Source of the DNA: a candidate division FCPU426 bacterium
GTDB taxonomy: Bacteria; Oederibacteriota; JAAXVQ01; JAUVAV01
Reading direction: 5' to 3'
DNA: 64,000 bases
Assembly (NCBI GenBank): GCA_030591525.1
Contig: JAUVAV010000011.1
Location: 309-64,308, forward strand
The notes beneath the pieces are model-generated. The model made no database searches. It saw only the letters and a list, made by a program, of their open reading frames with translations, and was not told the DNA's origin. This document shows positions 1 through 59,024 of the stretch, piece by piece. Positions within the stretch are counted from its first letter, which is position 1; each line of letters opens with the position of its first letter. Position numbers and translations under genes: made by a program.

Positions 1-3000
1 AACGGTTCCGGGCATGGGACCGAGTTTGACAAGGAGACGCTGACCCCGGTATCGCAGGTGTTGAAGATTAGTCCATACTTGACAGCCGAACTGCAGGCCG
101 TGGCTGCTGAATTTGGCGCTGACATTGCGCAGCATGGCACCTCGGGAAGCGATGATGCGGAGCTGACGGACTTGTCCAAGGCAGGGGTTATCAAGTTCAA
201 CATTGCAACCAATTACCAGCAGCTCATATTGAATGTGCTGGCCTTGGTGGATAGCGGATTGCAAGGCAGAGCGCTGATGGCTGAAGTTATTGCCGACGCG
301 CCGGCCCTGATGAGCGGGCTGCATGAGGGCACGCGGGAGAAGATCCAGAGTCTGGCCAAGACGTTTAAAGCCAATCCCGCGGCAGCCGAAGAAAAAGCGA
401 CTGACAGCCTGTTCGTGAAGTTCATGAAGAAGACATTTGCTTGGGGTGTGAAGAAAGGCAAGATCAAGGAGAGCTCGGAAAAGGGCGATATCGGCAAAGT
501 ACTGGCCAAGGAGTTTAAGCGGGTATTTGGAGCCATGAATGAGGGTCTGCGCGCACTGGCATTCGGTAAATCAGAAGCTTCCATGGATTTATCCCGAGCC
601 AAAGTTAAAACCTCAGTCGTCCAGACGGGCGGAGCGGATACGCTAAAAGTAATTGTTACCTTGGCCAGTGGAGCCACGGGTCATTTCGTCGTCCCGGCGG
701 GAACTTCCACGGGCGAAGATGAGGCCAAGACTGTTCCGGTTCCCGAGTCCATTGAGAATGTGGCTAAAATACACGAAAGAGTAGTTGCAGCAGGTCTGAG
801 AGCCGATCAAGTTGTGGAAATCGGCCAATTGATTTTGAAAATGCAGGAAGAAGAGGAACTGGGCGCGCAGGCTACTCTGGGTTACCAGATGGCAGCAGCC
901 TGGGCCGCGGCCAGTGAGATGGGTATAGCGCCTTATGAATTCATTCGCCAACTGGTTCCGGATATCGCGTCCCACGGTGCTCTGAAGACCGTGATACAGC
1001 ATAACATCACGAATGGCGGCGAGCACGCGGACAACAGTCTGGATATGCAGGAGTTTATGATTGTTCCGGTGGGTAAAACCATAGCGGACAATAATGCAAT
1101 GTGCCTAAGGATTGATAAAGAACTCGGCGGAATTTATATTGCCCTGGGATTGCAAGCCAAGACGGATGATCAGGGAGTAGGAGAACTGCGCGGTAAAGAA
1201 GGCGGTTATAAAATTCCGAATCTGACTACAGAGAAGCTGCAGGAAATTTATGCTTCCATAGAAAACTATAATATTAACAATCTTGATTTAAAGCAGCTAA
1301 AGCGGGAGGGAGTCGGTGTTCATGAGTTTGTGTTAAATTGTAAGATCGCTGCTATTAAAAACGCGGGGTACACGCCTTCGACATCAAAAGAACCAGGCAC
1401 TGCCTCTCTGGCTTTGGATGCTGCTGCTACTTCCATGTTAGTTAAAGACACGGATGATAAATATCATTACGAAGGCCGTGAGATTTCATCAGAAAAATTG
1501 GTTGAGATCTATGCCGGATGGGTCAAAAAATATCCGATTGACTCGATTGAGGATGGTCTGGGTGAAAATGATTGGGACGGCTGGATGAATTTGATTGAGA
1601 GAGTCGGAGACAAGGTTCTGCTGATCGGTGATGATAATTTGGTCACGCAGGCCGGCCGATTAACTTATTTCATAGAATTGATGGATGGAAAAGGCTTTAT
1701 TAAAAACGGCAAAGTGACTAAGAAAATCGGTATTCTGATCAAACTGAATCAAAACGGATTCTTAACCACTGGCTACAATGATCCCAAAGACGGTTATCTT
1801 GGAACCTTGGAAGTCATCCGCTTGGCCAGGAGTTACGGAATCGAAGTAATTGTCTCACACCGGTCAAAAGAAGCTGAACCTGAAGAAAATGAAGTATCCA
1901 TTGCTGAACTGGCGGCCGGGGTTAATGCCTATGCTTTAAAGTCGGGTGATTTTGTTCAAAAAATCCGTGCGGTCAAAGAAGCGCGATTGGCAGCGATTGA
2001 TAAAGAAATACGACAAAAAATGGAAACAACCGGCGGCGGTCACATAATTATGAGTTCATTATTAGCCCCCGCGCTGGGACTGGGAGCAGTGCTTGGTTTA
2101 ATTGACATAGTTTCCGGCCAGCCGACCACCGGTCAGGTGGCAACGGCAGCGCCTGAGTTGACGGAAATTCTGACCAGTACTGGGATAGTGCCTGCGATTT
2201 TGGGGCTGGTGGTTGTGCTCGGAATTACGTCGGCAGTTTGGCTTAGAAGCAAGCTGCGACCCGCGGCAACAGCAACTTTGGAAGCGGAGCCAGTGTCATC
2301 CCAAACTGCGCCAACAACAGAAACTTTACCGACGCTGGATACCGAAGGTCTTATTGCCGGTACTCTGGGAGTGAATGAGCCATATATGATAGAGATTTGG
2401 GGAGGCTTTAAGTTCTTACATGGTGTGCATGGCGACATGATAAAACTGGGTGCTTGGGTGATGAATCGTCTGACATCTGCAAGAACAGTTAATATCGCCG
2501 CCGCAAATAATAACACGGGAATTAGGTCCTTGCTGGCCAGGGCTCTCATGGAGAAAACGAAAGAGTTCAACTATGCCGAGGGTATCTCTTTGGGTGTGAG
2601 TGCAAAGTTGCAGGGGAGTTATACGACGAATGATTTTAAAGGCATCGAAACCATCGGAATATCGGCATCTGTACTGGCCATATTAGAACAGGGACGGGGA
2701 ACAGGAAGGATAGCAGGATTGAAATACCTGGTGGCTGAGGCTCTATTGATCCATACAGTGAAGTATCAAGTTGTGGATTATAACCGGACGGTGCGCGCGC
2801 GTGAGGGTATGGCGGCGGAGTTTGTGACACAGACTGCCGATGATCTACAGGCAATCAATGCTGCGGCTATAAATGCACTTTCAGCTACTCGCTTGAGTCC
2901 TGAAGTATTGGCAAAGGCAGAAGACGGCGCAGTGACATTTACGCCGGCTATGCTGGTGGAAGCTATTACAGCCCTTACGCCGGATCGTTCCGGTCTGCAG

Positions 3001-4371
3001 GAAAAGGTACAGAGCGCGATCAACGAGGCACTGGAAACCGGAGCAGGGCTCGAAATGCAGGGCTTGCTGGAGGCATTGATGAGCGAAGAGGCTCAGAGTG
3101 TGCCAGAGCTAAAAGTTTTGGCAAGCCTGCGAGAAGATATGACAACGCCTGCCGAGAGCGCGACACTCTTGTCATCCTTGCTTGGCATGCTTAAAGGCCA
3201 AAGCGTGGACATGGCGGCTGGGAAAACTGATGAGAGCATCAAAACTGTCAATGTTATTGGCGGAATATCAGAGGCGACAGCAGATATTATGCTGAAAATG
3301 ATCGAGAATGCGAGAGATGCCGGAGCCGACACGAAGATATTGGACGCCTTGCAGAAAGCAGTCAAGGCTTCGCAGGGTCAGACTGCGGATAGTATGGCTG
3401 CCTTGCCCATAGATGCAGGCCGGTTATTGGCAAGCATTATCGAGCAGGCGAGGACGCAAACCGCGGCTGATTCATACATCGGTGAAAATGCCCAGGGATT
3501 AAAATTGCATGTCGCTGGCATTGGCTGGCGGACGGTCGAGATTATAGAAGGCGTAAACGTACAAGTGCCCGTATTAGCAGCGGCCAAGACCAAACTGCAG
3601 CAAGTAAATATTGCCGAAATGTTTGCTCAGGCTGAGCAGGGTGTGGTTTCAGAAGGTGTGCAGCTCAGCGTGTTTAGTCAGGCCGCAGCTCTGCCGGAGC
3701 AGATTACAGATTCAACCCTAACGCAAACCCTAACGCAAAAGCTATGGTCTGCGGGGCTGGCAAGCTTGAGCCGGGTCAGTATACTGCCGCAGACGGCGCG
3801 AAGTTACCTTGGATATAGAGCAATGAGGTTGGATCCGGCCGGCCAGCTGTGGAAAGTCATCGAAACCCTCCAGAGCGAGCCGGACCTGATGAAGGCGGGT
3901 ATGGTGCAAGATTTGGCTGGAATTAATAGCAAAGCCGACGCGCTGGAATTCCTCAATAAGAATACCGCGCTGTCCATTGCACTGCGTCAGATGTTCACAG
4001 CGGCTGATGCGAAAGCGTTTTACGTTGCGCAGGCCAAGGTAGGGAGTTGCCTGACCAACCGTATCAGCCCGGCGTGGGTGGGAATCACAGCCGCGCCAGT
4101 GGCTGCGGAACCTGCCATGGATATGCTCAACGCTCAGTTCTTCACCAAGTTCTTGAGTGCTTTGGGCCTGAAGATGATGGCCATCGGGCATGTGGATGCC
4201 ACTGGTATGAAGCTCGAGCTGCCGCAATCCATGATTGACGTGATTGGATTCAAGGCCAAGGTTGGTACCTTGGTGGATAAGTGGGAGAAATTGCCAACCA
4301 CCATCTACTATCATGCACTCCAGATGTTGCTGAGAAACGGTCTGCGGATGTCAGTAGAAGTTGCGGCGTAA
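1..4371 (+). CDS. 5'-truncated large modular protein (>1456 aa): class II fructose-bisphosphate aldolase C-terminal part + enolase domain + hydrophobic segments + C-terminal domain shared with ORF 40631
   Basis: Frame open from base 1 (NGSGHG...QHGTSG...GVIKFNIAT, class II aldolase motifs). Enolase motifs PAGTSTG, NGGEHADN, QEFM, GKEGG, SIEDG, GDD, IKLNQ, SHRS, KSG at ~580-2030. Two hydrophobic stretches at ~2050-2245. Ends VEVAA. Confidence 0.85.
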   Translation, partial: NGSGHGTEFDKETLTPVSQVLKISPYLTAELQAVAAEFGADIAQHGTSGSDDAELTDLSKAGVIKFNIATNYQQLILNVLALVDSGLQGRALMAEVIADAPALMSGLHEGTREKIQSLAKTFKANPAAAEEKATDSLFVKFMKKTFAWGVKKGKIKESSEKGDIGKVLAKEFKRVFGAMNEGLRALAFGKSEASMDLSRAKVKTSVVQTGGADTLKVIVTLASGATGHFVVPAGTSTGEDEAKTVPVPESIENVAKIHERVVAAGLRADQVVEIGQLILKMQEEEELGAQATLGYQMAAAWAAASEMGIAPYEFIRQLVPDIASHGALKTVIQHNITNGGEHADNSLDMQEFMIVPVGKTIADNNAMCLRIDKELGGIYIALGLQAKTDDQGVGELRGKEGGYKIPNLTTEKLQEIYASIENYNINNLDLKQLKREGVGVHEFVLNCKIAAIKNAGYTPSTSKEPGTASLALDAAATSMLVKDTDDKYHYEGREISSEKLVEIYAGWVKKYPIDSIEDGLGENDWDGWMNLIERVGDKVLLIGDDNLVTQAGRLTYFIELMDGKGFIKNGKVTKKIGILIKLNQNGFLTTGYNDPKDGYLGTLEVIRLARSYGIEVIVSHRSKEAEPEENEVSIAELAAGVNAYALKSGDFVQKIRAVKEARLAAIDKEIRQKMETTGGGHIIMSSLLAPALGLGAVLGLIDIVSGQPTTGQVATAAPELTEILTSTGIVPAILGLVVVLGITSAVWLRSKLRPAATATLEAEPVSSQTAPTTETLPTLDTEGLIAGTLGVNEPYMIEIWGGFKFLHGVHGDMIKLGAWVMNRLTSARTVNIAAANNNTGIRSLLARALMEKTKEFNYAEGISLGVSAKLQGSYTTNDFKGIETIGISASVLAILEQGRGTGRIAGLKYLVAEALLIHTVKYQVVDYNRTVRAREGMAAEFVTQTADDLQAINAAAINALSATRLSPEVLAKAEDGAVTFTPAMLVEAITALTPDRSGLQEKVQSAINEALETGAGLEMQGLLEALMSEEAQSVPELKVLASLREDMTTPAESATLLSSLLGMLKGQSVDMAAGKTDESIKTVNVIGGISEATADIMLKMIENARDAGADTKILDALQKAVKASQGQTADSMAALPIDAGRLLASIIEQARTQTAADSYIGENAQGLKLHVAGIGWRTVEIIEGVNVQVPVLAAAKTKLQQVNIAEMFAQAEQGVVSEGVQLSVFSQAAALPEQITDSTLTQTLTQKLWSAGLASLSRVSILPQTARSYLGYRAMRLDPAGQLWKVIETLQSEPDLMKAGMVQDLAGINSKADALEFLNKNTALSIALRQMFTAADAKAFYVAQAKVGSCLTNRISPAWVGITAAPVAAEPAMDMLNAQFFTKFLSALGLKMMAIGHVDATGMKLELPQSMIDVIGFKAKVGTLVDKWEKLPTTIYYHALQMLLRNGLRMSVEVAA

Positions 4372-4390: not shown

Positions 4391-4789
4391 GTAGGGGCGA
4401 CGCATGCGTCGCCCCTACAATAAATTCAAAATACCTTTGCATTTGTAGGGGCAACCCCCTGTGGTTGCCCATCTGTGTGACGCAAAATTCCCGGGCGGGT
4501 TTGGAATCCGCCCCTACGAAAACCAACATACCTAATTTATGCAAACCGTAGGGGCAACCCCCAGTGGTTGCCCATCCGTGTGACGCAAAATCCCCAGGCG
4601 GGCACGGGGGCCCGCCCCTACAAAAATCCAACCTACCTAATTTATGCAACCGTAGGGGCCGGCTTCCATAGCTGGCCCTTGGATTTAAAACCACGCAAAT
4701 CATACAAAGGGCGGGTTTGGAACCCGCCCCTACGAAAACTAACATACCTAATTTATGCAAACCGTAGGGGCAACCCCCTGTGGTTGCCC
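4391..4789. repeat. Tandem array of GTAG-type REP palindromes/REP doublets (REPIN/BIME-like)
   Basis: Perfect 28-bp palindrome at 4391-4418. Doublets GTAGGGGC...GCCCCTAC at 4445-4517, 4548-4621 and 4652-4733, and a half unit at 4764-4789, separated by a conserved linker containing tacctaatttatgcaa. Confidence 0.85.
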
Positions 4790-4815
4790 ATCCCCCCCCT
4801 CAACATAAAAAAATA

Positions 4816-4860: not shown

Positions 4861-4884
4861 AAACGAATAGAAGAGGTGGTACTT

Positions 4885-5340
4885 ATGGCGCAGTCAAAGA
4901 CCTGGCGGAAATTGAGCTCCAGTCTGGAGGATTATCTGGAAGCGCTTTTCCATATTGTTGCGGTGAAACGCGCGGCCAAGGCCAAGGATCTGGCTTCTCG
5001 TCTAAAGGTTAAGGCGGCCTCGGTAACCGGGGCTTTGCATTTACTGGCCGCGAAAAAGCTGATTAATTACGCGCCTTATGATGTGATTACTTTGACTCCC
5101 AAGGGCGAGGAAATGGCAAGGGATGTAATCCGTCGTCACAGCGCGCTGAAAGATTTTTTTGTTAAAGTCCTGAAAATTCCGGAATCGGAAGCTGACGAAT
5201 CAGCCTGTAGAATGGAACACGGTATATCTCCGGTTATTTTAAAGCGGTTGGTTCAATTTATGGGGTTTGTGGAACATAACCCCTCCCAGAGTAAGGCTTG
5301 GATTGAAAAATTCGAGGTATTTTGCGGGAAGAAAAAATAG
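4885..5340 (+). CDS. DtxR/MntR-family metal-dependent repressor
   Basis: SLEDYLEAL, HTH (AKDLASRLKVKAASVTGAL), LTPKG, RRH, ACRMEHGIS motifs. No C-terminal FeoA/SH3 domain. Confidence 0.92.
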   Translation: MAQSKTWRKLSSSLEDYLEALFHIVAVKRAAKAKDLASRLKVKAASVTGALHLLAAKKLINYAPYDVITLTPKGEEMARDVIRRHSALKDFFVKVLKIPESEADESACRMEHGISPVILKRLVQFMGFVEHNPSQSKAWIEKFEVFCGKKK

Positions 5341-5366
5341 ATTACATATTTACTCGAGGTGTTTAT

Positions 5367-7499
5367 ATGAAAAAGAAAATTACTATTGCCCTGGCGGGTA
5401 ATCCGAATTCGGGCAAAACCACTATTTTTAACAATTTGACTGGAAGCCGGCAGCATGTGGGGAATTATCCGGGCGTAACGGTTGAAATAAAAGAAGGAAC
5501 CTGCCAATGTCAGGATACTGAGATTAGAGTGGTTGACCTTCCCGGGACCTATAGCCTGACCGCCAACTCACTCGATGAATTGGCGGCCAGAAACTATATT
5601 GTTCGGGAAAAGCCCGATGTAGTAGTGAATATTCTGGATTCCTGCACCCTGGAGCGGAATTTATACTTAACCACGCAAATCATGGAATTAGGGGTACCCC
5701 TGGTTCTGGTTTTTAACATGAGCGATGAAGCTAAATGCCGGGGCCTGGAATTTGATATAGACCAGCTCTCAAAATTGCTGGGGGCTCCCATTGTCAGAAG
5801 TGTGGGAAATAAAGGGGAAGGCACCAAGGAACTGGTGGAGGCGGTCCTGGCTGTTGCGGCTCAGCCCCAGGGCCGGGAAGATATAAAAATTAATTATGGC
5901 CGGGATATTGAGAAAGAACTGGCTAAAATACAAAAACTGGTGGAAAGAGGAATGGGCCAAGATCGGCCAGAGTCGGTTCGCTGGCTGGCCATCAAGCTTC
6001 TGGAAAAGGACAAGGAAGTAAGCCGGCAGATTACTTCGCCGGAATTGCAGTCGGCCGTGGAACGGAGCGCGGAGCATTTGAAAAAATTGCTCGGAGATCA
6101 TCCGGAAAATCTGATCGCAGACCGGAGATACGGCTTTATCTCCGGCGCCTGCCAGGAAGCCGTGCAGAGTTCGGCAGAGATCCGGCACGAATTGTCGGAT
6201 AAAATCGATACGGTTCTTATCAATCGTTTTTTAGGTTTCCCGATATTTTTGGGTTTAATGTTTCTGGTTTTCCATTTCACATTTACCCTGGGCAATCCGG
6301 CCATGGAATTGGTGGAAGCTATGTTCGGATGGATGGGAAAGGTGATAACCGGCTGGTGGCCCGTGGGAACGGAGAGCTGGGTCCAGTCACTGCTGGTGGA
6401 CGGCATTATCGGCGGAGTGGGCGGAGTGGTGATATTTCTGCCGAATATTATCTTTTTATTTTTAGCCATCGCGCTCCTGGAAGATACGGGCTATATGGCG
6501 CGGGCCGCCTTTATCATGGATCGCTTAATGCACAAGATCGGTCTTCACGGAAAAAGCTTTATCCCCATGATGATCGGGCTGGGCTGTTCGATTCCGGCCA
6601 TTATGGCTACCCGTACCCTGGCGGGCCGGCAGGACCGTCTCACTACCATGATGGTTGTCCCCTTGATGAGCTGCGGCGCCAGACTTCCGATTTATACGTT
6701 GATTGCGCCGGCTTTCTTTCCGCAAGTCTGGCAGGCGCCCGTGGTCATGATTATGTATCTAACCGGCGCGCTATTAGCCATTATTGGCGCCAAGGTTCTC
6801 AGGTTCACGGTATTCAAAGGTGAATCAACCCCCTTTGTGATGGAACTTCCGCCGTACCGGGTCCCGACTATGAAAAGCCTGTTTAATCATACCTGGGAGC
6901 GGGCCTGGATGTATCTTAAAAAGGCCGGTACTGTTATCCTGGCCATTTCCATAGCGCTCTGGGTATTAACCAGCTATCCTAAAAAACCGGACTCGAAAGA
7001 AGTGCCGAATAACCCGGTTGTTAATACGCTTGAGAAAAGCGCAATAACAAGCGAAGATTCTATCCTGGAAAAACAGCATCAGTCTCAGGCCGAAGATTTA
7101 GCCTATTCTTTTGCCGGGCGCATAGGTCATCTGCTCGAGCCTTTGCTGAAACCCATGGGATTTGACTGGAGGATCGGTACGGCCTTGATGGGCGCGTTTG
7201 CGGCCAAGGAGGTTTTTGTGGCCCAGATGGGCATTGTTTTTGCCGTGGGCGAGGCGGATGAGGAATCTGATACCCTGCGGGAGAAACTTCAGCGGAATTA
7301 CACTCCGCTGGTGGGGATTTGCATCATGCTTTTTTGCCTGATTTCAGCCCCGTGTATGGCTACTATAGCAGTTACCTGGCAGGAGAGCGGTTCCTGGAAA
7401 TGGGCGCTCTTTCAGCTGGGCGGGCTCACGCTTCTGGCTTACGTGTTGACTTTGATGGTGTATCAGACCGGAATTCTTCTGGGGTTCGGAAGCGGGTAG
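5367..7499 (+). CDS. feoB: Ferrous iron transporter FeoB
   Basis: GNPNSGKT, VGNYPGVTV, DLPG, NMSD GTPase motifs. LEDTGYMAR, ELPPYR, AKEV, CMAT membrane motifs. ATG 5367 follows GAGGT. Confidence 0.97.
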   Translation: MKKKITIALAGNPNSGKTTIFNNLTGSRQHVGNYPGVTVEIKEGTCQCQDTEIRVVDLPGTYSLTANSLDELAARNYIVREKPDVVVNILDSCTLERNLYLTTQIMELGVPLVLVFNMSDEAKCRGLEFDIDQLSKLLGAPIVRSVGNKGEGTKELVEAVLAVAAQPQGREDIKINYGRDIEKELAKIQKLVERGMGQDRPESVRWLAIKLLEKDKEVSRQITSPELQSAVERSAEHLKKLLGDHPENLIADRRYGFISGACQEAVQSSAEIRHELSDKIDTVLINRFLGFPIFLGLMFLVFHFTFTLGNPAMELVEAMFGWMGKVITGWWPVGTESWVQSLLVDGIIGGVGGVVIFLPNIIFLFLAIALLEDTGYMARAAFIMDRLMHKIGLHGKSFIPMMIGLGCSIPAIMATRTLAGRQDRLTTMMVVPLMSCGARLPIYTLIAPAFFPQVWQAPVVMIMYLTGALLAIIGAKVLRFTVFKGESTPFVMELPPYRVPTMKSLFNHTWERAWMYLKKAGTVILAISIALWVLTSYPKKPDSKEVPNNPVVNTLEKSAITSEDSILEKQHQSQAEDLAYSFAGRIGHLLEPLLKPMGFDWRIGTALMGAFAAKEVFVAQMGIVFAVGEADEESDTLREKLQRNYTPLVGICIMLFCLISAPCMATIAVTWQESGSWKWALFQLGGLTLLAYVLTLMVYQTGILLGFGSG

Positions 7500-20065: not shown

Positions 20066-23000
20066 ATGAAGACAATCATGGTAAATATTATGGGATTGCT
20101 TAAAAAACCATATATCATTGCCGGTCTTTTAGCCATCGGGTTGGCCGGCGCGGTCTATGTGAAATTCATCAGCCCGACCAACCTAGCTTTCATTAATTTC
20201 ACGGATTCACAATACGCGCAGATACTTCAGGTGAAGGGCAATCCCTTTATACGGGTGAAACGCATCTCGTTCAAACCGGAAAAAACACCTGGTTTGAAAA
20301 AGTATACGGCTATCTATATTTTCGGCATGGGCCTGAACCTGAATGAAAAGCAGATGAAAAGCATCCGGGCGGCTATGAATAAAGGAAGCAAAGTATATGT
20401 CTATGCAGCTACCAGCAGCGGTAGTGATTTGACCAATCTGGCGGGAGATAATCTGAAATATGTTGAAGCCTGTTTCAGTAATGGCGGGCGCAGGAATATG
20501 CACGCCCTGTTGAATTACAGCCGCCGGATATTTGATGGAAAAACATTGTTCGGCCGGCCGTTGGCAGAGCCGCAAATCATACCCCATGATGTCTTTTTCC
20601 ATCTGGGCGAGGAAGAGTTTTTTGCTGATTACAAAAAGTATCAGGAATTTTACGAGACCAAGGGGTATTACAAACCTGAAGGCGCGAAGATTTGTATCCT
20701 GACGACTAATCTCGGCCCCAGAAACCGGAATAACCGGGCCGCGGTGGATGCCCTGATAAGGGATTTAGAGGCGCGCGGCATGAATGTTTATCCGGCAGCC
20801 GGGTTCATGCAACGCCTGGATTTCCTGAAAGCCGTGAATCCGGATTTGGCCGTGTTGATGCCGCATGGACGGCTGGCCATGGGCCGGGCGGCTGAAGCCG
20901 TCGCTTATCTTGGAGAGAAAAATATTCCCTTGCTTTGTCCGATTCATATCTTTGGCCCCTATGATGAGTGGCTAAAGGACCAACAGGGCATGGCCGGGGG
21001 CATGCTGAGCCAGAGCATTGTTATGCCGGAGTTGGACGGCGGGATTGATCCTTATGTCATTGGCGCTCAGTTTAAAAACAAAGATGGATTGTATGTTTTC
21101 CAACCCATACCGGAAAGGATTAAACGGTTTGGCCGGCGGGTGGAAAATTGGATCAGATTGCAGCGCCTGCCGAATTCTGGAAAAAAAGTGGCGATTGTCT
21201 ATTACAAAGGTCCGGGTTTAAACGCCATGTCAGCCGGCGGTCTGGAAGTAGGACCATCGATGCTGAATGTGCTCCGTCATTTGAAACAACGGGGGTTTAA
21301 TACCGGCGTTTTGCCGGAAAATAACCAGGTCTTGATGGAGCGGATTCAAAAAGAAGGCCCGGTTTTGGGCGCTTACGCCAAGGGGTCTTTTCAAAAATAT
21401 TTAGATAATGGAAATCCAAAACTAATTCCCGTGCCAACCTATTCCGCCTGGTGTCAACAGCAGCTGAAACCGGAAATGGTCAAAGATATAGAAGCAAATT
21501 ACGGGCCGGCTCCGGGAGCATATATGCAAGTTACCAAAGGCGAGGAGAGATATATTGCAGTAGCCCGGATCCGGTTCGGCAATGTGGTTATCCTGCCCCA
21601 GCCTTTGCCCGGATATGGCGATAATGAATCCAAACTGATTCATGGGATCAAAAAAGCGCCGCCCCATTCATATGTGGCTGCTTATCTCTGGGCAAAAAAC
21701 GGGTTTAAAGCGGACGCGATTGTTCATTTCGGCACGCACGGCAGCCTGGAATTTACGCCCTGGAAACAGGCGGCCCTGTCGCAATATGATTGGCCGGACG
21801 CGTTGATCGGCGATTTGCCGCATCCCTATATTTATGTGATCAACAATATCGGCGAGGCCATGATAGCCAAGCGCAGAAGCTATGCGGTTATTGCTTCGCA
21901 CCTGACCCCGCCGTTTACCGAGGCGGACCTGTACGGAAAATTATCAGAGCTTCACAATGCCCTGCACAGCTATTTCAGCACGGAGAGCAAGGCATTAAAG
22001 CAGGAATACCGGGAAACCATCAAGACCTTGGTTTATAAAATGGAACTGCATAAAGACCTGGAATTAGAGGAAAAAGAAAAAGGCGCTTTGCCGGAAGCGG
22101 CCATTCATAAAATACATAATCATATTCATGCGCTGGAACAGGAAAAAATCACCCGCGGGCTTTATACCCTTGGCAGGAGTTACCGCCAAACGGATGTTTA
22201 TGAAACCGTAAGACTAATGGCCATTGATGCGATCGCGTACAGCCGGGCCGGGCTGGACTTATTACAAGGAAAGATAAAAGCAGAGGATATGGAAAACCAA
22301 CACAAGTTTGACAAAATGTACCGCCAAAAGGCTTATGCCGTTATTGACAATATCCTGCTGCACAATTATTCTCCTGCCGGATATCTGGACAAGCAGGACC
22401 TGGAGCAGCTGGCTGCCTGGGAAAAACTGCATGCCAGACCCAGCGATGACGAAATGATGGCCAGCATGATGGCCATGGCAATGGACAGCCAGGGTAAGAA
22501 GAAAAAAACGCCGGAAAAAGCGAAAAAAACCGATCTTGGCCGGTTGAAAGTTCTGGTACTGGAAATAGCGCCTGATCCAAAAAAACAAGAATTTATTTTA
22601 TCCCTGAAAAACGGGAAAAACTTTACGCGTGTATCCGCTCTTTTAGATCCGGAAAGCATGAAAAAAGCGGTTAAGGTCGTAAAGTGCGTTCCTGCCATGA
22701 GGGAAAAACTTGAACTTTTTAAGGATCCAAATATGCTGGAACTGGTCGGTCTTATGCAGAATTCGAAGAGCCGCGAGACGGTGTTTAATCTGCTGGAGGA
22801 TAAGAACATGCGCGCGCAGATCCGGGATGAACAAAAAAAGCTGAAGGAGCAGGCGGTCTTAAAAGCCCTGGAACCGGATTATACCCGGGATATATTTCTG
22901 GCGATAAAGCCGGAAAAATACCGGCCAACGATTGCCGGCTGGCACAAAAACCGCTTACTGGTTTTTAAGAACCATATCGGCTTTTACCTTGAAAATAAAG

Positions 23001-24820
23001 ACCTGGCCGGCGAAATCGCCAGGACCGGAAATAAAGACGCCCGGGCATTGGCGGCAGTCTTACGAAGCGGGAAAGCGCTGGGAGCGGTTAAGGAGTCTGC
23101 CCGTCTGGCAGATAAGAAAATTGCAGAATGGGAAGCCCGGGAGGCGGATTATGTTGCGGCTGTGCGGACATACCGCGATACGCTTTTTTCAATCAAAGAT
23201 TATCATGCTGCTTTGGAAAAATCGACGCAAGCAGAGATGGCGGCCATCACGCGGGCCTTGTCCGGCGGATATTTATCCCCATCCTCAGGCGGAGATCCGA
23301 TCGGCAATCCCCGGTCAGTTCCGACCGGACGGAATCTTTTTGCCATTGACGCGGAAAAAACGCCGACCAAAGAAGCCTGGAAGGTTGGAGTAAAACTGGC
23401 GGATGCCTTAATCGCCGCCAGGCTCAGCCGGACTGGCAAGTATCCGCAAAAAGCGGCATTTACTTTATGGGGAGGCGAATTTATCCGCGCGAAAGGGATT
23501 AACCTGGCCCAGATATTTTACCTGCTGGGCGTGGAACCTGTGAGGAATTCCCGGGGATCTGTCCATGATGTCAGGCTGATACCCATGGAAAAATTGAAGC
23601 GGCCAAGGATAGATGTAGTTGTGCAGACTTCGGGTCAGTTCCGGGATATAGCGGCCTCGCGGGTTTATTTGATAAATAAAGCCGTGGAACTGGCCGGCCG
23701 GGCTGATGATGGGGACCAATATGAAAACCATGTAAAAGCCGGAACCATCAAAGCCGAGGCAATTATGAAAGCCAAAGGTCTTTCGCCTGAGCAGGCCAGA
23801 AAATTCGCCGCAGCCCGGGTGTTCGGCGGAGTCAATGGAAATTACGGAACAGCCATCATGGGCAAGGTGGAATCAGGCGATAAATGGGAAGACGAAAAAG
23901 AAATCACCGATCAATATTTAAAAAACATGGGAGCGGTTTATACCAAAGAAAATTGGGGGTTTTATCAGGCCGGAATTTTCGAAGGCGCTTTGCAAAACAC
24001 GGATACAGTGGTGCATCCTCGTTCTTCCAACACTTATGGTCCATTATCCCTGGATCATTACTATGAATTTATGGGAGGTCTCAACGCGGTAGTGCGCCAG
24101 GTTACGGGCAACGACCCCGAGGCATTCTTTAATGACCTGCGCAACCGCTATAACCCACGGGTTCAGGGCGTAAAAGAAGCCATCTGGGTGGAAGCCAGAA
24201 CCACGATATTTAATCCCAAGTATATCAAGGATCTCCAGGCCGGCGGGGCCTCGTCGGCCGAGGTGTTCGCGGAAACGGTCCGCAATACTTATGGATGGAA
24301 TGTGATGAAACCAAACGCGATTGACAAGGAAATATGGGAGGGGATTGAGTCAGTCTATATTCAGGATAAATATAAACTGGGCATGGAAAAGTACTTTCGG
24401 GATAAGAATCCTTACGCTTTGCAGGAGATAACCGCAGTCATGCTGGAGACTATTCGCAAGGGCTACTGGCAGCCCGATGCGGCGGTCATTAAGCGTATCG
24501 CTGAATTACATGCCAGGCTGGTGATAGATCATAAAGCCGGATGCAGCGGGTTTGTATGCGATAACGCGAAATTGCAAGCCATGATTCAAAATGCGCTGAA
24601 GCCGGAAATGAAAGCGGATTATAAACGGCAGATTGATTCAGCCAGGGTGGGAGAAACAGGAGAGAAGAAAAAGGGAATGGAATTGAAAAAAGAAAAGATG
24701 AGCCTGGAGAAGGTCAAGGAGCTGGTTAAGGAAAACATAACTACGGTTGTGGCAGTGTTTATAATTCTATTGCTGTTTTCCGCGGCCGTGATTGTCGGCA
24801 TGGCCAGACATAGAAAATAG
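20066..24820 (+). CDS. CobN/magnesium-chelatase-H family protein, membrane-anchored (HmuS/BtuS-like)
   Basis: PELDG, HFGTHGSLEF, AKRRS, PTGRNL, RPRIDVVVQTSGQFRD, EARTTIFNPKYI, CSGFVCDN. TM segments at both termini. Confidence 0.92.
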   Translation: MKTIMVNIMGLLKKPYIIAGLLAIGLAGAVYVKFISPTNLAFINFTDSQYAQILQVKGNPFIRVKRISFKPEKTPGLKKYTAIYIFGMGLNLNEKQMKSIRAAMNKGSKVYVYAATSSGSDLTNLAGDNLKYVEACFSNGGRRNMHALLNYSRRIFDGKTLFGRPLAEPQIIPHDVFFHLGEEEFFADYKKYQEFYETKGYYKPEGAKICILTTNLGPRNRNNRAAVDALIRDLEARGMNVYPAAGFMQRLDFLKAVNPDLAVLMPHGRLAMGRAAEAVAYLGEKNIPLLCPIHIFGPYDEWLKDQQGMAGGMLSQSIVMPELDGGIDPYVIGAQFKNKDGLYVFQPIPERIKRFGRRVENWIRLQRLPNSGKKVAIVYYKGPGLNAMSAGGLEVGPSMLNVLRHLKQRGFNTGVLPENNQVLMERIQKEGPVLGAYAKGSFQKYLDNGNPKLIPVPTYSAWCQQQLKPEMVKDIEANYGPAPGAYMQVTKGEERYIAVARIRFGNVVILPQPLPGYGDNESKLIHGIKKAPPHSYVAAYLWAKNGFKADAIVHFGTHGSLEFTPWKQAALSQYDWPDALIGDLPHPYIYVINNIGEAMIAKRRSYAVIASHLTPPFTEADLYGKLSELHNALHSYFSTESKALKQEYRETIKTLVYKMELHKDLELEEKEKGALPEAAIHKIHNHIHALEQEKITRGLYTLGRSYRQTDVYETVRLMAIDAIAYSRAGLDLLQGKIKAEDMENQHKFDKMYRQKAYAVIDNILLHNYSPAGYLDKQDLEQLAAWEKLHARPSDDEMMASMMAMAMDSQGKKKKTPEKAKKTDLGRLKVLVLEIAPDPKKQEFILSLKNGKNFTRVSALLDPESMKKAVKVVKCVPAMREKLELFKDPNMLELVGLMQNSKSRETVFNLLEDKNMRAQIRDEQKKLKEQAVLKALEPDYTRDIFLAIKPEKYRPTIAGWHKNRLLVFKNHIGFYLENKDLAGEIARTGNKDARALAAVLRSGKALGAVKESARLADKKIAEWEAREADYVAAVRTYRDTLFSIKDYHAALEKSTQAEMAAITRALSGGYLSPSSGGDPIGNPRSVPTGRNLFAIDAEKTPTKEAWKVGVKLADALIAARLSRTGKYPQKAAFTLWGGEFIRAKGINLAQIFYLLGVEPVRNSRGSVHDVRLIPMEKLKRPRIDVVVQTSGQFRDIAASRVYLINKAVELAGRADDGDQYENHVKAGTIKAEAIMKAKGLSPEQARKFAAARVFGGVNGNYGTAIMGKVESGDKWEDEKEITDQYLKNMGAVYTKENWGFYQAGIFEGALQNTDTVVHPRSSNTYGPLSLDHYYEFMGGLNAVVRQVTGNDPEAFFNDLRNRYNPRVQGVKEAIWVEARTTIFNPKYIKDLQAGGASSAEVFAETVRNTYGWNVMKPNAIDKEIWEGIESVYIQDKYKLGMEKYFRDKNPYALQEITAVMLETIRKGYWQPDAAVIKRIAELHARLVIDHKAGCSGFVCDNAKLQAMIQNALKPEMKADYKRQIDSARVGETGEKKKGMELKKEKMSLEKVKELVKENITTVVAVFIILLLFSAAVIVGMARHRK

Positions 24821-40553: not shown

Positions 40554-40630
40554 ATAACAAGTGCCAAAAGCTATATTTTAAAGATCATCTAATCAATTTT
40601 ATCAATCCTAAATTTATATGAAAGAAAATT

Positions 40631-43600
40631 ATGCAAAAATTCAAATCTTTTTTACCAATATCAGTTCAGCCCGGCTCTCCAGGCCTGCGCTGGACAAAAA
40701 TAACCGCTCTGCTGCTGGCAATCACCTTGGTCTTTCCTCATTTGGCATGGGCTTTTGAATATATTAATCTTTCCAACCCTAAGGTAATGATTTTTAATAA
40801 CCGGCCGGTTGAGATTCCTAAAAAAATCGGCAAAATAAGCAGGACTTTTCATGGCCAGGACCAATTGGTTATTCATATTGAGGACCTGCACTGTAATTAC
40901 GAAATTCAATCCAATATAGCTAAAATCATTGATCACCTGGCCCGTTGGCATACCCTCCGGCTGGTAACTATGGAAGGAGCCGACAAGCCGGTCAATGTAG
41001 CCAAGTTGTCTGCTTTTCCCATAGAGGCCGTGAAAAAAGAGGTTGGAGAGTATTTTATTAAACAGGGAAAAATATCCGGGGCCGAGTTTTATGCGGCTAC
41101 GGGACGCTATCCTATTGACCTGGAAGGAATAGAGAATCCTGAGCATTACCGGCAAGGACGCGAATTGGTCTCAGGCTTTCTTAATAATGAAAGTCAGGGA
41201 TATGTGCATGATTTAAGAGACATGCTGGAGGAGTTAAAGAAATGCATCTATAGTCCGGAATTATTTAAATTTGACGCGAAAAAGACCGCCTGGCGTGAGG
41301 GCCGTATTTCCAGCTTGAAATACTGCATCTTTTTAAAGCAACGCGCTGTTCGCTCCGGTCTGAAAGGTTTTCCACTAATCAAACGCTATGTATCCCGGGG
41401 AGAGGAAGTACTCTGGCCGGGACTGGACCCGGATCAGCTTTACCAGGAGATTGAGCGTCTGGACGGAATTCTGCGCGCAGGGCTTTACACCAGGACAGAG
41501 CAGCGCGAACTCGATCAGCACCAGCGCCGGCTGGACATAATGGAGAAACTTTTAAATATCTCTGCCACGCCCGTTGAATTGGCCGAGTATCAAGAACATG
41601 CCCCGGCCTTTCAAATCAAGAATTTTCAGGATTTTATCCAGGGTTATGCGGCAGGTAAAAAATATCCCTGGGATCCCGGTATTTACGGGTTGGACCGCTG
41701 GCTCGAAAAAGCCCGGGCTTTTTATGCGAATGCCGATCAGCGCAGCCTGGATTTTATAACAAATCTTCTCGCCCGCATGGAGCATTACCAGGCCCAAATA
41801 GCGGTCCTGATAACCGGCGGTTATCATACCCCAATGGTGTTGGAAGAGCTTGAGCAGCGCAATATTTCCTTTATTTCAGTACAACCCGGTTTAACCCGCC
41901 AGGATTTAGTTAATCCCTATTTTTCACTGTTAAGAGAGCAACGTACGCCGCTGGAGAAGCTGCTGAGCCAGGATCAAAAGGTTATAGCCCTGGAACCCTT
42001 TTTTGCGCAATGGGATAAAATCAGGATCAAGGCGGATCAGCTTCCTGCGGAAGTTCGCTTGGGTTATGACCTGTTGGAAATGACCTTAAAACTGGATTAT
42101 ATTCATTACTTGCAGGAAAAAGGAGTTGCCGGACTGGAAGGCCTGCAAGCCGAGTATAGGCAAGAGATTGCGGAATACGAGAAAAACAGCCAACGGATCA
42201 AGCTGAATTTAAACCGCGTCTTGGCCGGGGACCGGTTTTTTGCCGTGCCCTTTGAGGGAGCATCCTATTTTGCCGTGCTGAGTTTGCCGGGACAGAGCCC
42301 GGTGTCCGGCGCTTTCCAGACCATGCTGATCAAGGATGATCTTGAATTAACTTTTTACCATAAGCCAGAGTGGAATGTCATGGCCGAAAAAATTAAAGAC
42401 CAGCCGATTTATGATGCCTCCCACGCCCTGGTCCGCAGACGTCTTCTCCAGGCTGTGTGCCCGGGAGGGGAGCCTGTGATTTTTGCCGGGGAATGGCTTG
42501 CGCCCCGCATTCTAAATTGGATGAAGCGCCGGTCGCAACAGGGGAAAATATTACCGGCCAAAATAGAGCGGACATTGACCAATCCGGCCGGCGGATTGGT
42601 CATTAAATTAGGACTGGGATTAGGCCGGGCGATCTTTGGGAATCAGAAAATTATGCAGCAGCTTATTTTATTCTTTCCGGTTTTGTCGGCTAATGACAAT
42701 AAAACCGGAAACCGGATGGCCAAGAAGACCGGCGAAGAGGAAAATATTGCTATTATTCAAGAAACCGCAGCTTATCGGCTTTTGGAGACACTGGGGCTTT
42801 TAGCGATAGAGAACAACCCGGCAGTAGTAATTGAAGAGACTGTGAAATATCCTGAATATACTGTCCGCAGGATCCGAATTCCTGAACGTGCAGATACTAC
42901 AAAGCCTCCGCGGGGATTGGAAATTCTCCAGAATGAAATAGCCGATATTGTTCGGTTTGACCTTTTGTATAATAGGGAAAATCAACTTATTGCGATATTT
43001 CCAGCCTTGCCCCTTGAGACAAATTCGAAATCAACCCACATAGCTTATAATGGTATAATAAAATATTTTGATTTGGGAGAATACTATTTAAAGGATTCTG
43101 AGATAACTGTTCCGGAAATAGAAGGCAAGTGGGAAAAGATGTACGCTGAAAGCGAGTCGAATATCCGGCTGATTAAAAGCTATCTTAAGCTTGTACTAGG
43201 CAAGAAAGCCTCGTCAGCCCTTATGATTGATTGTGAGTGTGGAAAGCGACCTTATGCCTATATATCAGTGGATCGGGAAACTGGAAAATGGCAAGCATAT
43301 GAAGTGGGAATGCAATACAAAAAGCACCCGGATGTAAAGCCGCATCTAAATAGAGAAGAAATTATTATTCCGGTTTATCCGACAGTTTATTCGCCGGGTA
43401 ATCCTGTGGCCGATGTTGATGATGGATATTATAACTATATTTATAAGCATATGGGATTAAGGTTGGACCATAAAGTCATGGTAGTAGGACCGGGTTCAGG
43501 GTCGGATACATGGACGATTTCCCGGAAGACCGGGGGGAAGGTCTGGGCAGTGGGGATTAATCCTTTAGAGGTTGCGAATACGGTTCAAACCGCCGTGATA

Positions 43601-45166
43601 GGCGGATTTGAAGTGGACGCTGTAGTTGGTAATAATATTATCGATGAAATGGGCCATTCCGTATTTCCCGGCCAAAAATTCAACCGGATTGTTTGGTGTA
43701 TGCCTCATTTTAGTCACCGGAGTTTGGGTTTTAGCGGACGCCATCCCTCGTTTTCCGAGTTTTGGGATCCTGATTTTGAAGGAGAGGTTTTAAAGCGATT
43801 TGTAAAAGGTTTGCCATTATTACTTGAACCGGACGGTTATGCCATTATCTGGAATAAAAATATCCCCGATACCATGCTGCAATCTTTCGAAGGAGTGAAG
43901 ATCGAAAAAGTGGAGAGCATGGTTTATAAGATTATTCTAACCGAACCCGCATCAGCAAGCGTCAACAGACCGCGGATCCATCCTGGAATGTTTAACCTGC
44001 CTTTTTATATCCGGCATTTAAAAATTTTGCAGCACTGGCGTCTGCCGCGCGCGCTTGGGATGTTTATCCTGGCTAGTGGATGGCTGCTGGTCCAGACGGC
44101 GTGCCGAGCCTTTCCCCGGCTGAAAATTTCCGGAACGGATAAGGACTTGGACCCTGATTCGAGTAAGGAACTTAATTTAATGAAGCTCCGCCACGGCATG
44201 CCTGGAGTCCGTTTCCGGACGCTTTCCGGAAGATCATGGTGGAAAATATGGGGAATGATTACAGGGCTTTACCGTGAGAATGAACAGACTCCGGCTACTA
44301 TTTACGCATACCCGCCCTGGCTTAAGCTTATCCAGGCGCCTGAACTAAAAGCTAAGGGTTCTCTGGAATCCAGATTGGCCGGATGGCGTTATGCCTTGAC
44401 CAGGCGTCTGCTTGATAATTGTTTGGCTTACCACAGGGTGGATTATCTCAATTCCGGGACCGGATTCTGGGAGCGGAACCTGGATAAATTATTCAGGCGT
44501 GATATTCCCGCCTTGGCAAGACACACTCTTGCCAGGCACGAGATTCCGGGATTCGGCACGAGGATGGTGCGCCTGGCAGCAGTGAAATTACCCTGGCTGG
44601 CGGGATTCGGGAAGTCCCTGCGTTTATCTATACTCAAAGCGTATCCGGACTGGGAAATTAAAAAAATACTCGAGAGCATTAAGGCAGGATATCCGAAAGG
44701 CATGACGCCGAACTGCCTGGATGGTCTGGCCGGACAATTCAACCGCCCCGAATCCGGGGTTTACCAGGCCTACCAGGATATGGTCCGGGCATCGCCCAAA
44801 AAGTTTACGCAGGAACAAACGGAATTTTTCAGACAACTAAGAAACTTCATGCTGCCGAATCAGACCGATGTTCCGGAGCGAATGCCGGATAATATCGCAA
44901 TTTACCTGGAATTGATTTCCCGCCTGGATTTTGGTCCGTCATTTGAAATCGGGCGCTGGTCTCTACATGACCAAGTACCTGGATATTTAAAAGGCCGGAT
45001 AATATCCTTGCCCATAAGCATGAAAAACAGCCCGGGAGCAAGAGAACTCATAGTGATTATCAGCATGCTTCGCAGGTTTCAACCCTGGATAATCTTAAAT
45101 AATAAAACTATGGAAGAGATACTCTATCCCCGCAATACTCCCTGTATCTTTGAACAGGCTGCGTAA
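40631..45166 (+). CDS. 1511-aa exported modular protein: signal peptide, ~400-aa N-terminal domain, methyltransferase-fold cargo, C-terminal domain shared with ORF1
   Basis: ITALLLAITLVFPHLAWA|F; IEDLHC, MEGA, QRS, TGGYH; VYPTVYSP, VVGPGSG, AVGINP, IVWCMPHF; ends FEQAA. Confidence 0.85.
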   Translation: MQKFKSFLPISVQPGSPGLRWTKITALLLAITLVFPHLAWAFEYINLSNPKVMIFNNRPVEIPKKIGKISRTFHGQDQLVIHIEDLHCNYEIQSNIAKIIDHLARWHTLRLVTMEGADKPVNVAKLSAFPIEAVKKEVGEYFIKQGKISGAEFYAATGRYPIDLEGIENPEHYRQGRELVSGFLNNESQGYVHDLRDMLEELKKCIYSPELFKFDAKKTAWREGRISSLKYCIFLKQRAVRSGLKGFPLIKRYVSRGEEVLWPGLDPDQLYQEIERLDGILRAGLYTRTEQRELDQHQRRLDIMEKLLNISATPVELAEYQEHAPAFQIKNFQDFIQGYAAGKKYPWDPGIYGLDRWLEKARAFYANADQRSLDFITNLLARMEHYQAQIAVLITGGYHTPMVLEELEQRNISFISVQPGLTRQDLVNPYFSLLREQRTPLEKLLSQDQKVIALEPFFAQWDKIRIKADQLPAEVRLGYDLLEMTLKLDYIHYLQEKGVAGLEGLQAEYRQEIAEYEKNSQRIKLNLNRVLAGDRFFAVPFEGASYFAVLSLPGQSPVSGAFQTMLIKDDLELTFYHKPEWNVMAEKIKDQPIYDASHALVRRRLLQAVCPGGEPVIFAGEWLAPRILNWMKRRSQQGKILPAKIERTLTNPAGGLVIKLGLGLGRAIFGNQKIMQQLILFFPVLSANDNKTGNRMAKKTGEEENIAIIQETAAYRLLETLGLLAIENNPAVVIEETVKYPEYTVRRIRIPERADTTKPPRGLEILQNEIADIVRFDLLYNRENQLIAIFPALPLETNSKSTHIAYNGIIKYFDLGEYYLKDSEITVPEIEGKWEKMYAESESNIRLIKSYLKLVLGKKASSALMIDCECGKRPYAYISVDRETGKWQAYEVGMQYKKHPDVKPHLNREEIIIPVYPTVYSPGNPVADVDDGYYNYIYKHMGLRLDHKVMVVGPGSGSDTWTISRKTGGKVWAVGINPLEVANTVQTAVIGGFEVDAVVGNNIIDEMGHSVFPGQKFNRIVWCMPHFSHRSLGFSGRHPSFSEFWDPDFEGEVLKRFVKGLPLLLEPDGYAIIWNKNIPDTMLQSFEGVKIEKVESMVYKIILTEPASASVNRPRIHPGMFNLPFYIRHLKILQHWRLPRALGMFILASGWLLVQTACRAFPRLKISGTDKDLDPDSSKELNLMKLRHGMPGVRFRTLSGRSWWKIWGMITGLYRENEQTPATIYAYPPWLKLIQAPELKAKGSLESRLAGWRYALTRRLLDNCLAYHRVDYLNSGTGFWERNLDKLFRRDIPALARHTLARHEIPGFGTRMVRLAAVKLPWLAGFGKSLRLSILKAYPDWEIKKILESIKAGYPKGMTPNCLDGLAGQFNRPESGVYQAYQDMVRASPKKFTQEQTEFFRQLRNFMLPNQTDVPERMPDNIAIYLELISRLDFGPSFEIGRWSLHDQVPGYLKGRIISLPISMKNSPGARELIVIISMLRRFQPWIILNNKTMEEILYPRNTPCIFEQAA

Positions 45167-59020: not shown

Positions 59021-59024
59021 TTCT

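Follow-up and report, generated by a model that had tools for sequence, protein, structure and literature searches.

A divergent enolase in the C-terminal part of a giant, putatively membrane-anchored multi-enzyme protein of a candidate division FCPU426 bacterium

The DNA analysed here (the window) comprises 64,000 nucleotides (nt) of a candidate division FCPU426 bacterium, starting at base 309 of contig C81 (JAUVAV010000011.1), and its first reading frame encodes a divergent enolase fused to an aldolase-like domain, membrane helices and a conserved C-terminal module. Judged from sequence, this frame is in all likelihood the C-terminal quarter of a single ~6,000-codon gene that starts on another contig of the same genome, C78. 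The initial annotation had described two glycolytic enzymes inside a protein bearing membrane segments; rather than a two-enzyme oddity, the frame appears to be the tail of a polyenzyme of ~6,000 amino acids (aa), a kind of protein reported in Omnitrophota preprints. The fusion is real, and giant proteins with glycolytic domains are already known in Omnitrophota.

On the forward strand, frame 1 has no stop from base 1 of the window until 4369-4371 (1,456 codons, the stop not counted), and the same frame is also open through the 308 nt upstream of the window to the first base of C81, ~4.7 kb in total. Because the frame is open to the contig end and no start codon context was found in the 308 nt between that end and the window, the gene must be truncated by the assembly. 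The aldolase-like domain, the enolase and the membrane helices are indeed fused in one frame, open over 1-4371, and the motifs quoted in the initial annotation each occur once in it, at or near the places it had given; the two hydrophobic helices that it described after the enolase were also recovered (Table 1).

Two Pfam families cover the enolase domain, Enolase_N at aa 205-315 with 40 bits (cut-off 35) and, at aa 445-678, Enolase_C with 141 bits (cut-off 21.5); the motifs of the domain are PAGTST (694-711), NGGEH (1012-1026), QEF (1048-1056), GKEGG (1192-1206), LDAA (1414-1425), IED (1546-1554), GDD (1627-1635), IKLNQ (1738-1752), SHRS (1855-1866) and KSG (1939-1947), each present once. A phmmer search of PDB sequences returned 67 enolases at E ≤ 1e-10 (best 2.3e-43); the alignments fell into two blocks, with ~44 residues unaligned between them and two further, shorter insertions, which bears out the insertions claimed from the sequence. 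The AlphaFold model, built on a 29-row alignment, reached a predicted local distance difference test score (pLDDT) of 94.4 and a predicted template modelling (TM) score of 0.93, and the best Foldseek matches in the PDB were all enolases (target-normalised TM 0.82-0.88, 27-32% identity). Twelve catalytic, metal or substrate positions were checked, in the numbering of the genome's own enolase: S43, H156, E165, E206, D243, E287, D315, K339, H367, R368, S369 and K390. All 12 are kept in the window, where LDAA, IED, GDD and PAGTST align with D243, E287, D315 and S43, so the domain can be called apparently intact, as first proposed. We take the three carboxylates (D, E, D) to be the Mg ligands and the Ser to belong to the second metal site, while the IKLNQ Lys and a Glu presumably form the catalytic pair and the His, Arg, Ser and Lys presumably hold the substrate. 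Canonical bacterial Eno (~430 aa) has the same two-domain fold and the same 12 positions; the window domain differs from it in sequence (32-37% identity), in ~65 extra residues spread over three insertions, in an altered GSxxRSER-type C-terminal motif, in its embedding in a giant membrane protein and in its separate clade. Since the TIGR01060 equivalog score was 206 bits, under the cut-off of 300, the domain was classed as a divergent paralog and not as the housekeeping equivalog. From the residues kept, we take it to be catalytically active, interconverting 2-phosphoglycerate and phosphoenolpyruvate (PEP).

The class II aldolase call stood in part: Pfam agrees with it, but only the last third of the domain is assembled and the match to F_bP_aldolase (PF01116, aa 30-84) was marginal on the window alone, at 26.4 bits for a cut-off of 25.5. 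With the 308 nt upstream included, the match rose to 44 bits over profile positions 131-253 of 277 (C81:159-584). The aldolase motifs NGSGHG (1-18), QHGTSG (130-147) and KFNIAT (193-210) occur once each in frame 1, and the two putative zinc histidines (in GSGHG and QHGTSG) align with those of the genome's own fba; the Asp-His strand with the third zinc ligand would be expected in the unassembled part, and the relative P0012 has HGDH at that place. The K-x-N-x-D-T-D substrate motif is altered, with Lys and Asn kept and both Asp replaced in KFNIATN; in P0008 and P0020 the Asn, too, is replaced, by His. NCBIfam aldolase models matched only at E 2e-4 to 4e-3, far under their cut-offs. We take the domain to be a zinc aldolase, its specificity being uncertain.

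The relatives of the enolase were sought with HMMER among 1.84 billion representative proteins, which gave 5,187 matches at E ≤ 1e-3. The top 15 (E ≤ 1e-83, 47-67% identity) all lie in proteins of 593-3,196 aa; past them, scores fall to E ~1e-45 and weaker, and the matches are ordinary ~430-aa enolases (33-49% identity), some other long proteins and two short fragments. We aligned 65 domains: 17 of a group called clade A (the window, its ortholog in genome G001, P0005-P0008, P0013-P0021 and both copies in P0012), two sister domains (A2: P0010 and P0011), 10 of a second long-protein group (B), five near-canonical fused enolases and 31 ordinary ones, the last being the genome's own and the first 30 of 46 canonical-length matches. 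The fragments P0022, P0023, P0024, P0027 and P0067, the protein P0009 (nearly the same as P0004), and P0025 and P0026 were omitted. In an IQ-TREE 'quick' tree (LG+G4, 65 rows, 425 columns, midpoint root only), clade A formed a single branch with a Shimodaira-Hasegawa-like approximate likelihood ratio (SH-aLRT) support of 100, or 99 with P0010 and P0011 added, so that a phylogeny of the kind proposed in the initial annotation does set the domain apart. The genome's own eno fell among the ordinary enolases. A branch with support 100 divides clade A (with A2) and the second long-protein group from the other 36 domains, the ordinary and near-canonical ones; under midpoint rooting, the second group adjoins these 36 (support 99), so this split is not a rooted clade.

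The extracted clade A domains measure 491-516 aa, compared with ~425 aa for canonical enolases, and the ~44-residue insertion is present in all 17. The twelve positions are invariant in 17 of 17 clade A, both A2 and all 10 group B domains, i.e. in 29 of 29 long-protein enolases whose overall identity is only ~50%. Judged by these comparisons, the window enolase is a separate lineage, seen only in long multi-enzyme proteins, and the pattern shows the enolase of such giants as an apparently old paralog that evolves separately and whose catalytic residues are constrained. This enolase is common to seven long proteins of 2,679-3,541 aa. Its partners in relatives include PGK, TIM-PGK-enolase (~1,500 aa) and PGK-GAPDH-TIM-enolase (2,026 aa) arrangements, PPDK-GAPDH-TIM-PGK-enolase (4,729 aa), Enolase-PEPCK, and PPDK together with iPGM and PGK; transketolase, transaldolase, phosphoketolase, aminotransferase, aldo-keto reductase, PGM/PMM and 6-phosphogluconolactonase domains were also found. 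In P0012 (2,175 aa, Candidatus Omnitrophota), an aldolase domain stretched by inserts to ~540 aa is followed by two tandem clade A enolases.

All clade members that carry an organism name are labelled Candidatus Omnitrophota or Omnitrophica, and the proteins nearest to the housekeeping enolase of this genome bear the labels Candidatus Firestonebacteria (84% identity) and candidate division FCPU426 (83% and 81%). Among 41 relatives searched, the enolase was found in a long frame only in this genome (G000) and G001; 38 matched only in frames of 428-590 aa and G031 gave no match. Only two of 99 genomes of the phylum matched the long-protein enolase at E ≤ 1e-40. Together, the Omnitrophota-labelled relatives and the rarity in its own phylum suggest, on the thin evidence of one marker gene, either transfer between phyla or loose labels. 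The architecture may extend beyond Omnitrophota, insofar as a single marker and the labels of metagenome-assembled genomes can indicate. A motif-pattern search of genome contigs returned one clade member (L027, Candidatus Omnitrophota) among the 80 loci listed and is uninformative on distribution, one of its two patterns also fitting ordinary enolases.

Separate eno and fba genes, which the initial annotation had raised as a point to be checked, lie on C78 and C41. The ordinary enolase (425 aa) is at C78:23089-24366 (locus L005:2092-3366, reverse strand), and an ordinary class II fba is a 343-aa frame with 287 bits. Ordinary GAPDH, PGK and triosephosphate isomerase (TIM) genes stand side by side on C56 as a gap-pgk-tpi cluster, and there are two PGM candidates, a His_Phos_1 protein on C23 and a Metalloenzyme family protein on C17. 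Because these ordinary copies exist in the same genome, the giant protein is regarded as a second set. A sister giant frame of 5,962 aa on C10 (L019:29-17914, forward strand) has the N- and C-modules of the family described below and the genome's only iPGM_N match; in it a Metalloenzyme piece precedes iPGM_N, and the order looks rearranged.

The suggestion that more enzymes might lie upstream was confirmed on C78. In a genome rich in very long frames, the reverse strand of this contig carries a frame of 4,193 codons that runs off the contig end and encodes a type II GAPDH (NF003251, 115 bits, cut-off 185; SCNTTG present), a calcineurin-like metallophosphoesterase (Metallophos, 21-23 bits), a PGK-like domain (35 bits, Pfam cut-off 27; HLGRP and ENIR motifs) and two TIM domains (187 bits each; GGNWK, GHSE and AYEP motifs), plus a divergent TIM-like stretch. 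The catalytic Asn/Lys, His and Glu are kept in the TIM domains. The TIM pair (L004:2484-4184, reverse strand) reads as strands 3-8 followed by strands 1-2, twice, with the GGNWK strand after the C-terminal part. P0008 has the same permuted order in a single copy, which argues for a circular permutation and not a broken repeat; no naturally occurring permuted triosephosphate isomerase is known to us. After the GAPDH comes a short winged-helix-like stretch (P0003 aa ~1455-1560, C78), with weak DUF7342, MarR_2, CggR_N and GntR matches (E 0.005-0.2). The metallophosphoesterase was also considered as a class III FBPase, but it matched only Metallophos, at the bits given above, and no FBPase model. 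Immediately upstream of the start of the giant gene (C78, L004:12847-14352, reverse strand) are genes for a circularly permuted YpsA (SLOG) protein and a radical SAM protein.

Towards its end, the C78 frame comes to look like the N-terminal part of a class II aldolase, aligning to P0012 366-445 (31% identity, E 4e-5), and the head of C81 aligns to P0012 745-909 (63% identity). The P0012 stretch between these parts spans ~300 aa, with HGDH and IDAS strands and large inserts, and on the measure of this gap the whole protein would have ~6,050 aa (4,193 + ~300 + 1,558). No exact k-mer overlap (15-127 nt) was found between the C81 start and any other contig end, which makes the join indirect. Other members of the family also run off contig ends (C91, C34 and C63), none of them with an aldolase-like tail. 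Logan contigs of other runs extend upstream of the first base of C81 by 877 nt (X4) and 426 nt (X5), the 30 nt shown being in frame and stop-free. The linker between aldolase and enolase is covered by overlapping Logan pieces; X1 is interrupted at 731-749, a break that an X5 record spans.

Genome G001, of the same genus, has an ortholog of 3,542 aa whose frame lies on a single contig of 12.8 kb. Over residues 1-784 this ortholog shares 80% identity with residues 1-774 of the C78 frame, and identity is 42% in the PGK-like and 52% in the TIM-like part of that frame, 55% in the window enolase and 47% in the C-module. It lacks the GAPDH, phosphoesterase, permuted TIM and aldolase modules and has a multi-helix membrane block in their place, so cargo varies within one genus. 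The G+C content is 0.41-0.44 across the enolase-coding part (window 1001-2000), 0.53-0.55 just before and 0.48-0.56 after it (genome 0.484), and the low G+C of the enolase together with cargo unlike that of the ortholog hints at module exchange.

Elsewhere in the genome there are 15 copies of the initial 670 residues of the C78 frame (29-63% identity), each starting a frame of 1,117-6,585 aa. All 16 begin with a signal anchor, comprising a K/R-rich W[HQ]xPxRRxW, ~19 hydrophobic residues and WAFE or WAFD, which is followed by an N-module of ~420 aa. Given the C78-C81 join, the part of the protein encoded in the window would belong to this 16-member family. In an N-module alignment of seven of the 16 copies and the G001 ortholog, D48, H50, E54, E78, E128, E131 and H364 are invariant. 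A profile of eight paralogs gave no PDB match at E ≤ 10 and no consistent Pfam family, and in the ESM Atlas the N-module matched only unnamed Omnitrophota clusters (0.89). By eye we see a resemblance to the TraB/GumN/TIKI type (DLHC ... TGGYH), which we treat as a lead only. The window itself holds a further paralog at 40622-45163 (forward strand), a 1,511-aa protein with the same signal anchor and ~420-aa N-module (48% identity) and no other hydrophobic segment.

At the other end of the giant, weaker paralogs of the C-module (22-27% identity) close frames on C10, C34 (two), C8 and C63. Beyond this genome, searches recovered it in G001 and P0161 alone; in P0161 it follows a GH15-like domain and membrane helices. 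It had no Pfam match at E ≤ 1, and its best ESM Atlas match (0.86) was to unnamed clusters; an assignment as a PPi-PEPCK lobe was dropped, since that match ranked 20th in the Atlas (0.81), within chance. An AlphaFold model from three sequences was unusable (pLDDT 43). In these comparisons head and tail are shared, and the enzymes between them have the look of interchangeable cargo.

Our tentative preference, held with slightly less than even confidence, is that the enzyme modules lie on the cytoplasmic face and work as a second, membrane-bound line. The giant protein would then be a membrane-anchored polyenzyme that begins with the signal anchor, the 420-aa N-module and three hydrophobic helices and continues with a paralogous GAPDH-II, the metallophosphoesterase, the PGK-like domain, two permuted TIMs, the divergent TIM-like region, the aldolase-like domain, the enolase and the conserved C-module. 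Two-helix membrane hairpins would separate the enzyme modules and pin them to the membrane, giving a second C3/C6 line, glycolytic or gluconeogenic, in addition to the usual soluble pathway. A hydrophobic scan of both fragments found 11 segments, one of them inside the PGK-like region, and at least 10 were taken as membrane helices. By parity, a signal anchor inserted N-in, together with the three helices that follow the N-module, would leave the enzymes inside. The loops of four hairpins (three in this protein, one in the G001 ortholog) contain no Lys or Arg (K/R) in 50 residues and nine Asp or Glu, while their 15-residue flanks contain 25 K/R in 120 residues, and this distribution favours the cytoplasmic face. 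The probability of finding no K/R in 50 residues is ~0.002 at a K/R frequency of ~11.5% and ~0.007 at 9.5% (observed frequencies 12.3% in the N-terminal fragment and 9.5% in the window part). GAPDH and PGK need NAD(P) and ADP/ATP, which are cytoplasmic cofactors. The sequence comparisons establish the domain identities, the fold and complete catalytic set of the enolase, the uninterrupted frame, the ortholog, the distinct enolase clade, the housekeeping genes and the paralog family; we infer enzyme activity, the contig join, topology and any channelling or flux direction.

Several observations weigh against a cytoplasmic placement or weaken the reading as a whole. The helices after the N-module do not follow the positive-inside rule cleanly, in that the 19-residue loop that would be outside has two K/R and a net negative charge is found in the flank behind the third helix. 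For the PGK-like, GAPDH and aldolase-like domains the matches lie under NCBIfam cut-offs, which leaves their substrates uncertain, and the contig join C78-C81 is indirect. Moreover, the N-termini of 20 among 27 long proteins resemble a Sec signal, combining a K/R-rich n-region with a hydrophobic core, and 14 of 18 such relatives have no other hydrophobic segment (Kyte-Doolittle threshold 1.6 over 19 residues), so that by standard rules their enzymes would be exported. A full duplicate set would also be expected for another compartment. For the giants of Omnitrophota, TMHMM placed the glycolytic domains outside the cell, a result on which the authors express doubt in the available text (10.1101/2023.11.21.568195). 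An alternative explanation is an exported or delivered chain, a form of which the initial annotation had proposed, with the modules in the periplasm, on the surface or in contact with the contents of a host or prey cell, the hairpins tethering them from the outer side, and sugar phosphates freed from another cell being turned over. The signal-like starts of the relatives, the complete housekeeping set and the extracellular prediction just cited all count for such a chain, as do the signal anchor kept at the start of all 16 paralogs and the assignment, in the accessible part of a second preprint, of 94% of long proteins to membrane or secreted classes (10.64898/2026.06.07.730766). The hairpin charges point the opposite way, to the cytoplasm; NAD(P)- and ATP-dependent enzymes would have no cofactor supply outside it, and the present analysis gave no sign of a host-associated lifestyle for this genome. 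We consider an exported chain unlikely, though a serious competitor. Rather more doubtful is the specific proposal that anchor and N-module form an export or anchoring device of the 16 giants whose cargo here is a lower-glycolysis chain outside the producer's cytoplasm; if true, aldolase, TIM, GAPDH, PGK and enolase, with iPGM on the sister protein, would act on the contents of an attached or lysed neighbour and harvest ATP or PEP.

The remaining explanations concern what the protein is and not where it lies. It could be a polyprotein, a precursor cut at or near the hairpins into separate soluble or singly anchored enzymes; the modular layout with repeated hairpin linkers would permit this, but Pfam found no peptidase domain in either fragment, and we regard it as improbable. 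Enolase, GAPDH, aldolase, TIM and PGK are known to moonlight on bacterial surfaces, and the clade-specific insertions of the enolase would suit a non-catalytic use of the folds as adhesins, binding modules or scaffold. The moonlighting adhesin offered in the initial annotation is nevertheless disfavoured, as the 12 positions are strictly conserved in all 29 long-protein enolases and the TIM catalytic residues are kept, and any such use seems very improbable to us. A chimera of separate genes made by the assembly is scarcely credible. The gene lies at a contig end, and contig region 1-750 is found in many short variant unitigs in other runs; however, the frame is open for 4.7 kb, G001 has the PGK-like, TIM-like, enolase and C-module parts in a single frame on one contig, P0012, from another assembly, shows the same succession of aldolase and enolase, the junction is covered by overlapping contigs of other runs, and at least 15 representative clusters carry the clade in proteins of 593-3,196 aa. 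Cleavage of giants by C39 or S8 peptidase domains has been proposed by West-Roberts et al. in the text available to us (10.1101/2023.11.21.568195), which would speak for the polyprotein.

Returning to the preferred cytoplasmic, membrane-bound line, its flux might be gluconeogenic and feed sugar-nucleotide and glycan synthesis, which is conjecture. The archaeal-type GAPDH, a possible sugar-bisphosphatase and the PPDK and PEPCK of relatives would fit the gluconeogenic direction, and the NTP_transferase, GH130-like and GH15-like cargo of sister proteins would fit glycan synthesis. In a metatranscriptome run, a 248-nt contig was identical over L001:1779-2002 and a second contig had 20 differences; since carry-over of DNA is possible, the 248-nt match was not counted as expression.

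The features of the frame are listed in Table 1; a Pro/Thr/Ala-rich linker lies between the post-enolase hairpin and the C-module. Just 3' of the stop, the window has four copies of a ~105-nt unit (60-96% alike, 4416-4793) with G+C-rich palindromes, e.g. GGGCAACCCCCTGTGGTTGCCC and GGGCGGGTTTGGAATCCGCCC. These are followed at 4876-7499 (forward strand) by a DtxR-type iron-dependent repressor (154 aa) that overlaps the start of a full-length FeoB (725 aa) by 19 nt. Two further long frames lie in the window on the forward strand, one of 1,584 aa at 20066-24817 and one of 1,824 aa at 58995-64000 that continues past the window end.

Table 1 Features of the enolase-bearing frame, in window coordinates
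Feature	Position	Strand	Basis
C-terminal part of giant gene	1..4371	+	open frame, off contig 5' end
Class II aldolase-like domain, last third	1..276	+	Pfam PF01116; 63% identity to P0012 aldolase domain
Linker or helical stretch	277..570	+	nothing above noise in Pfam
Complete enolase domain (N-terminal capping domain and barrel)	571..2043	+	Pfam, PDB sequence matches, AlphaFold (AF2), Foldseek
Clade-specific enolase insertion, ~44 residues	~1213..1341	+	unaligned to solved enolases
Hydrophobic helix a of post-enolase hairpin	2044..2103 (aa 682-701)	+	hydrophobicity
Hydrophobic helix b of same hairpin	2185..2241 (aa 729-747)	+	hydrophobicity; 27-residue inter-helix loop without K or R
C-module, ~680 aa	2338..4368	+	common to G001 ortholog and P0161; weaker paralogs in same genome

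The giant multi-enzyme proteins encoded by uncultured bacteria count among the largest features of microbial genomes that still await an explanation, and the two preprints cited above each disagree with themselves on whether metabolic domains lie inside or outside the cell. With ~6,000 aa, well-understood enzymes that have simple assays, an ortholog with other cargo, and short, clean hairpins, the present protein makes sidedness and activity directly testable. Its main value lies in offering a manageable system for asking if embedded enzymes have activity and on which membrane face they lie; it also indicates that TIM occurs in such giants in circularly permuted form.

Among known systems, the bifunctional PGK/TIM (NF010569), which we take to be the Thermotoga type, likewise fuses glycolytic enzymes in one bacterial polypeptide, but it is a soluble two-domain protein of ~650 aa, and NF010569 matched only the TIM part here (333 bits, cut-off 883). 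The TPI-GAPDH fusions of stramenopiles, as described in the available part of that report, are a second, fused lower-glycolysis copy with a targeting signal beside a cytosolic set, as here; they are eukaryotic, soluble and made of two enzymes, and their relocation to mitochondria is demonstrated (PMC3527533), whereas relocation of the present protein would be hypothetical. In the main texts of the literature consulted, insofar as these were available, no passage naming an enolase, GAPDH or PGK domain inside such giants was found, and supplements may list them; the accessible portions of Seymour et al. 2023 and of the huge-protein survey make no mention of glycolytic domains. A class of 'multi-enzyme metabolic clusters' has been described among proteins of at least 10,000 aa, with debate on cytoplasmic face versus periplasm, and like the present protein these have many enzyme families tiling one membrane-associated polypeptide; in the main text as available, enolase appears only as a housekeeping marker (10.64898/2026.06.07.730766). 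Closest in kind are the Archaeovorins of Omnitrophota which, according to the available text, often contain PPDK and less commonly TIM, GPI, FBPase, PGM/PMM and aldolase, and which resemble the present protein in great length, many membrane helices, divergent sugar-phosphate enzymes, uncertain localisation and separate housekeeping copies (10.1101/2023.11.21.568195). Their hosts are Omnitrophota, whereas the housekeeping enolase of this genome is nearest to FCPU426 and Firestonebacteria labels. They exceed 30,000 aa (genes of >90 kb), contain glycosyltransferase, methyltransferase, hydrolase, peptidase and NUDIX domains and mostly carry SecA_DEAD, as far as the accessible text reports (10.1101/2023.11.21.568195); Pfam found none of these families in either fragment of the present protein, which, at ~6,000 aa, consists almost purely of triose-phosphate enzymes.

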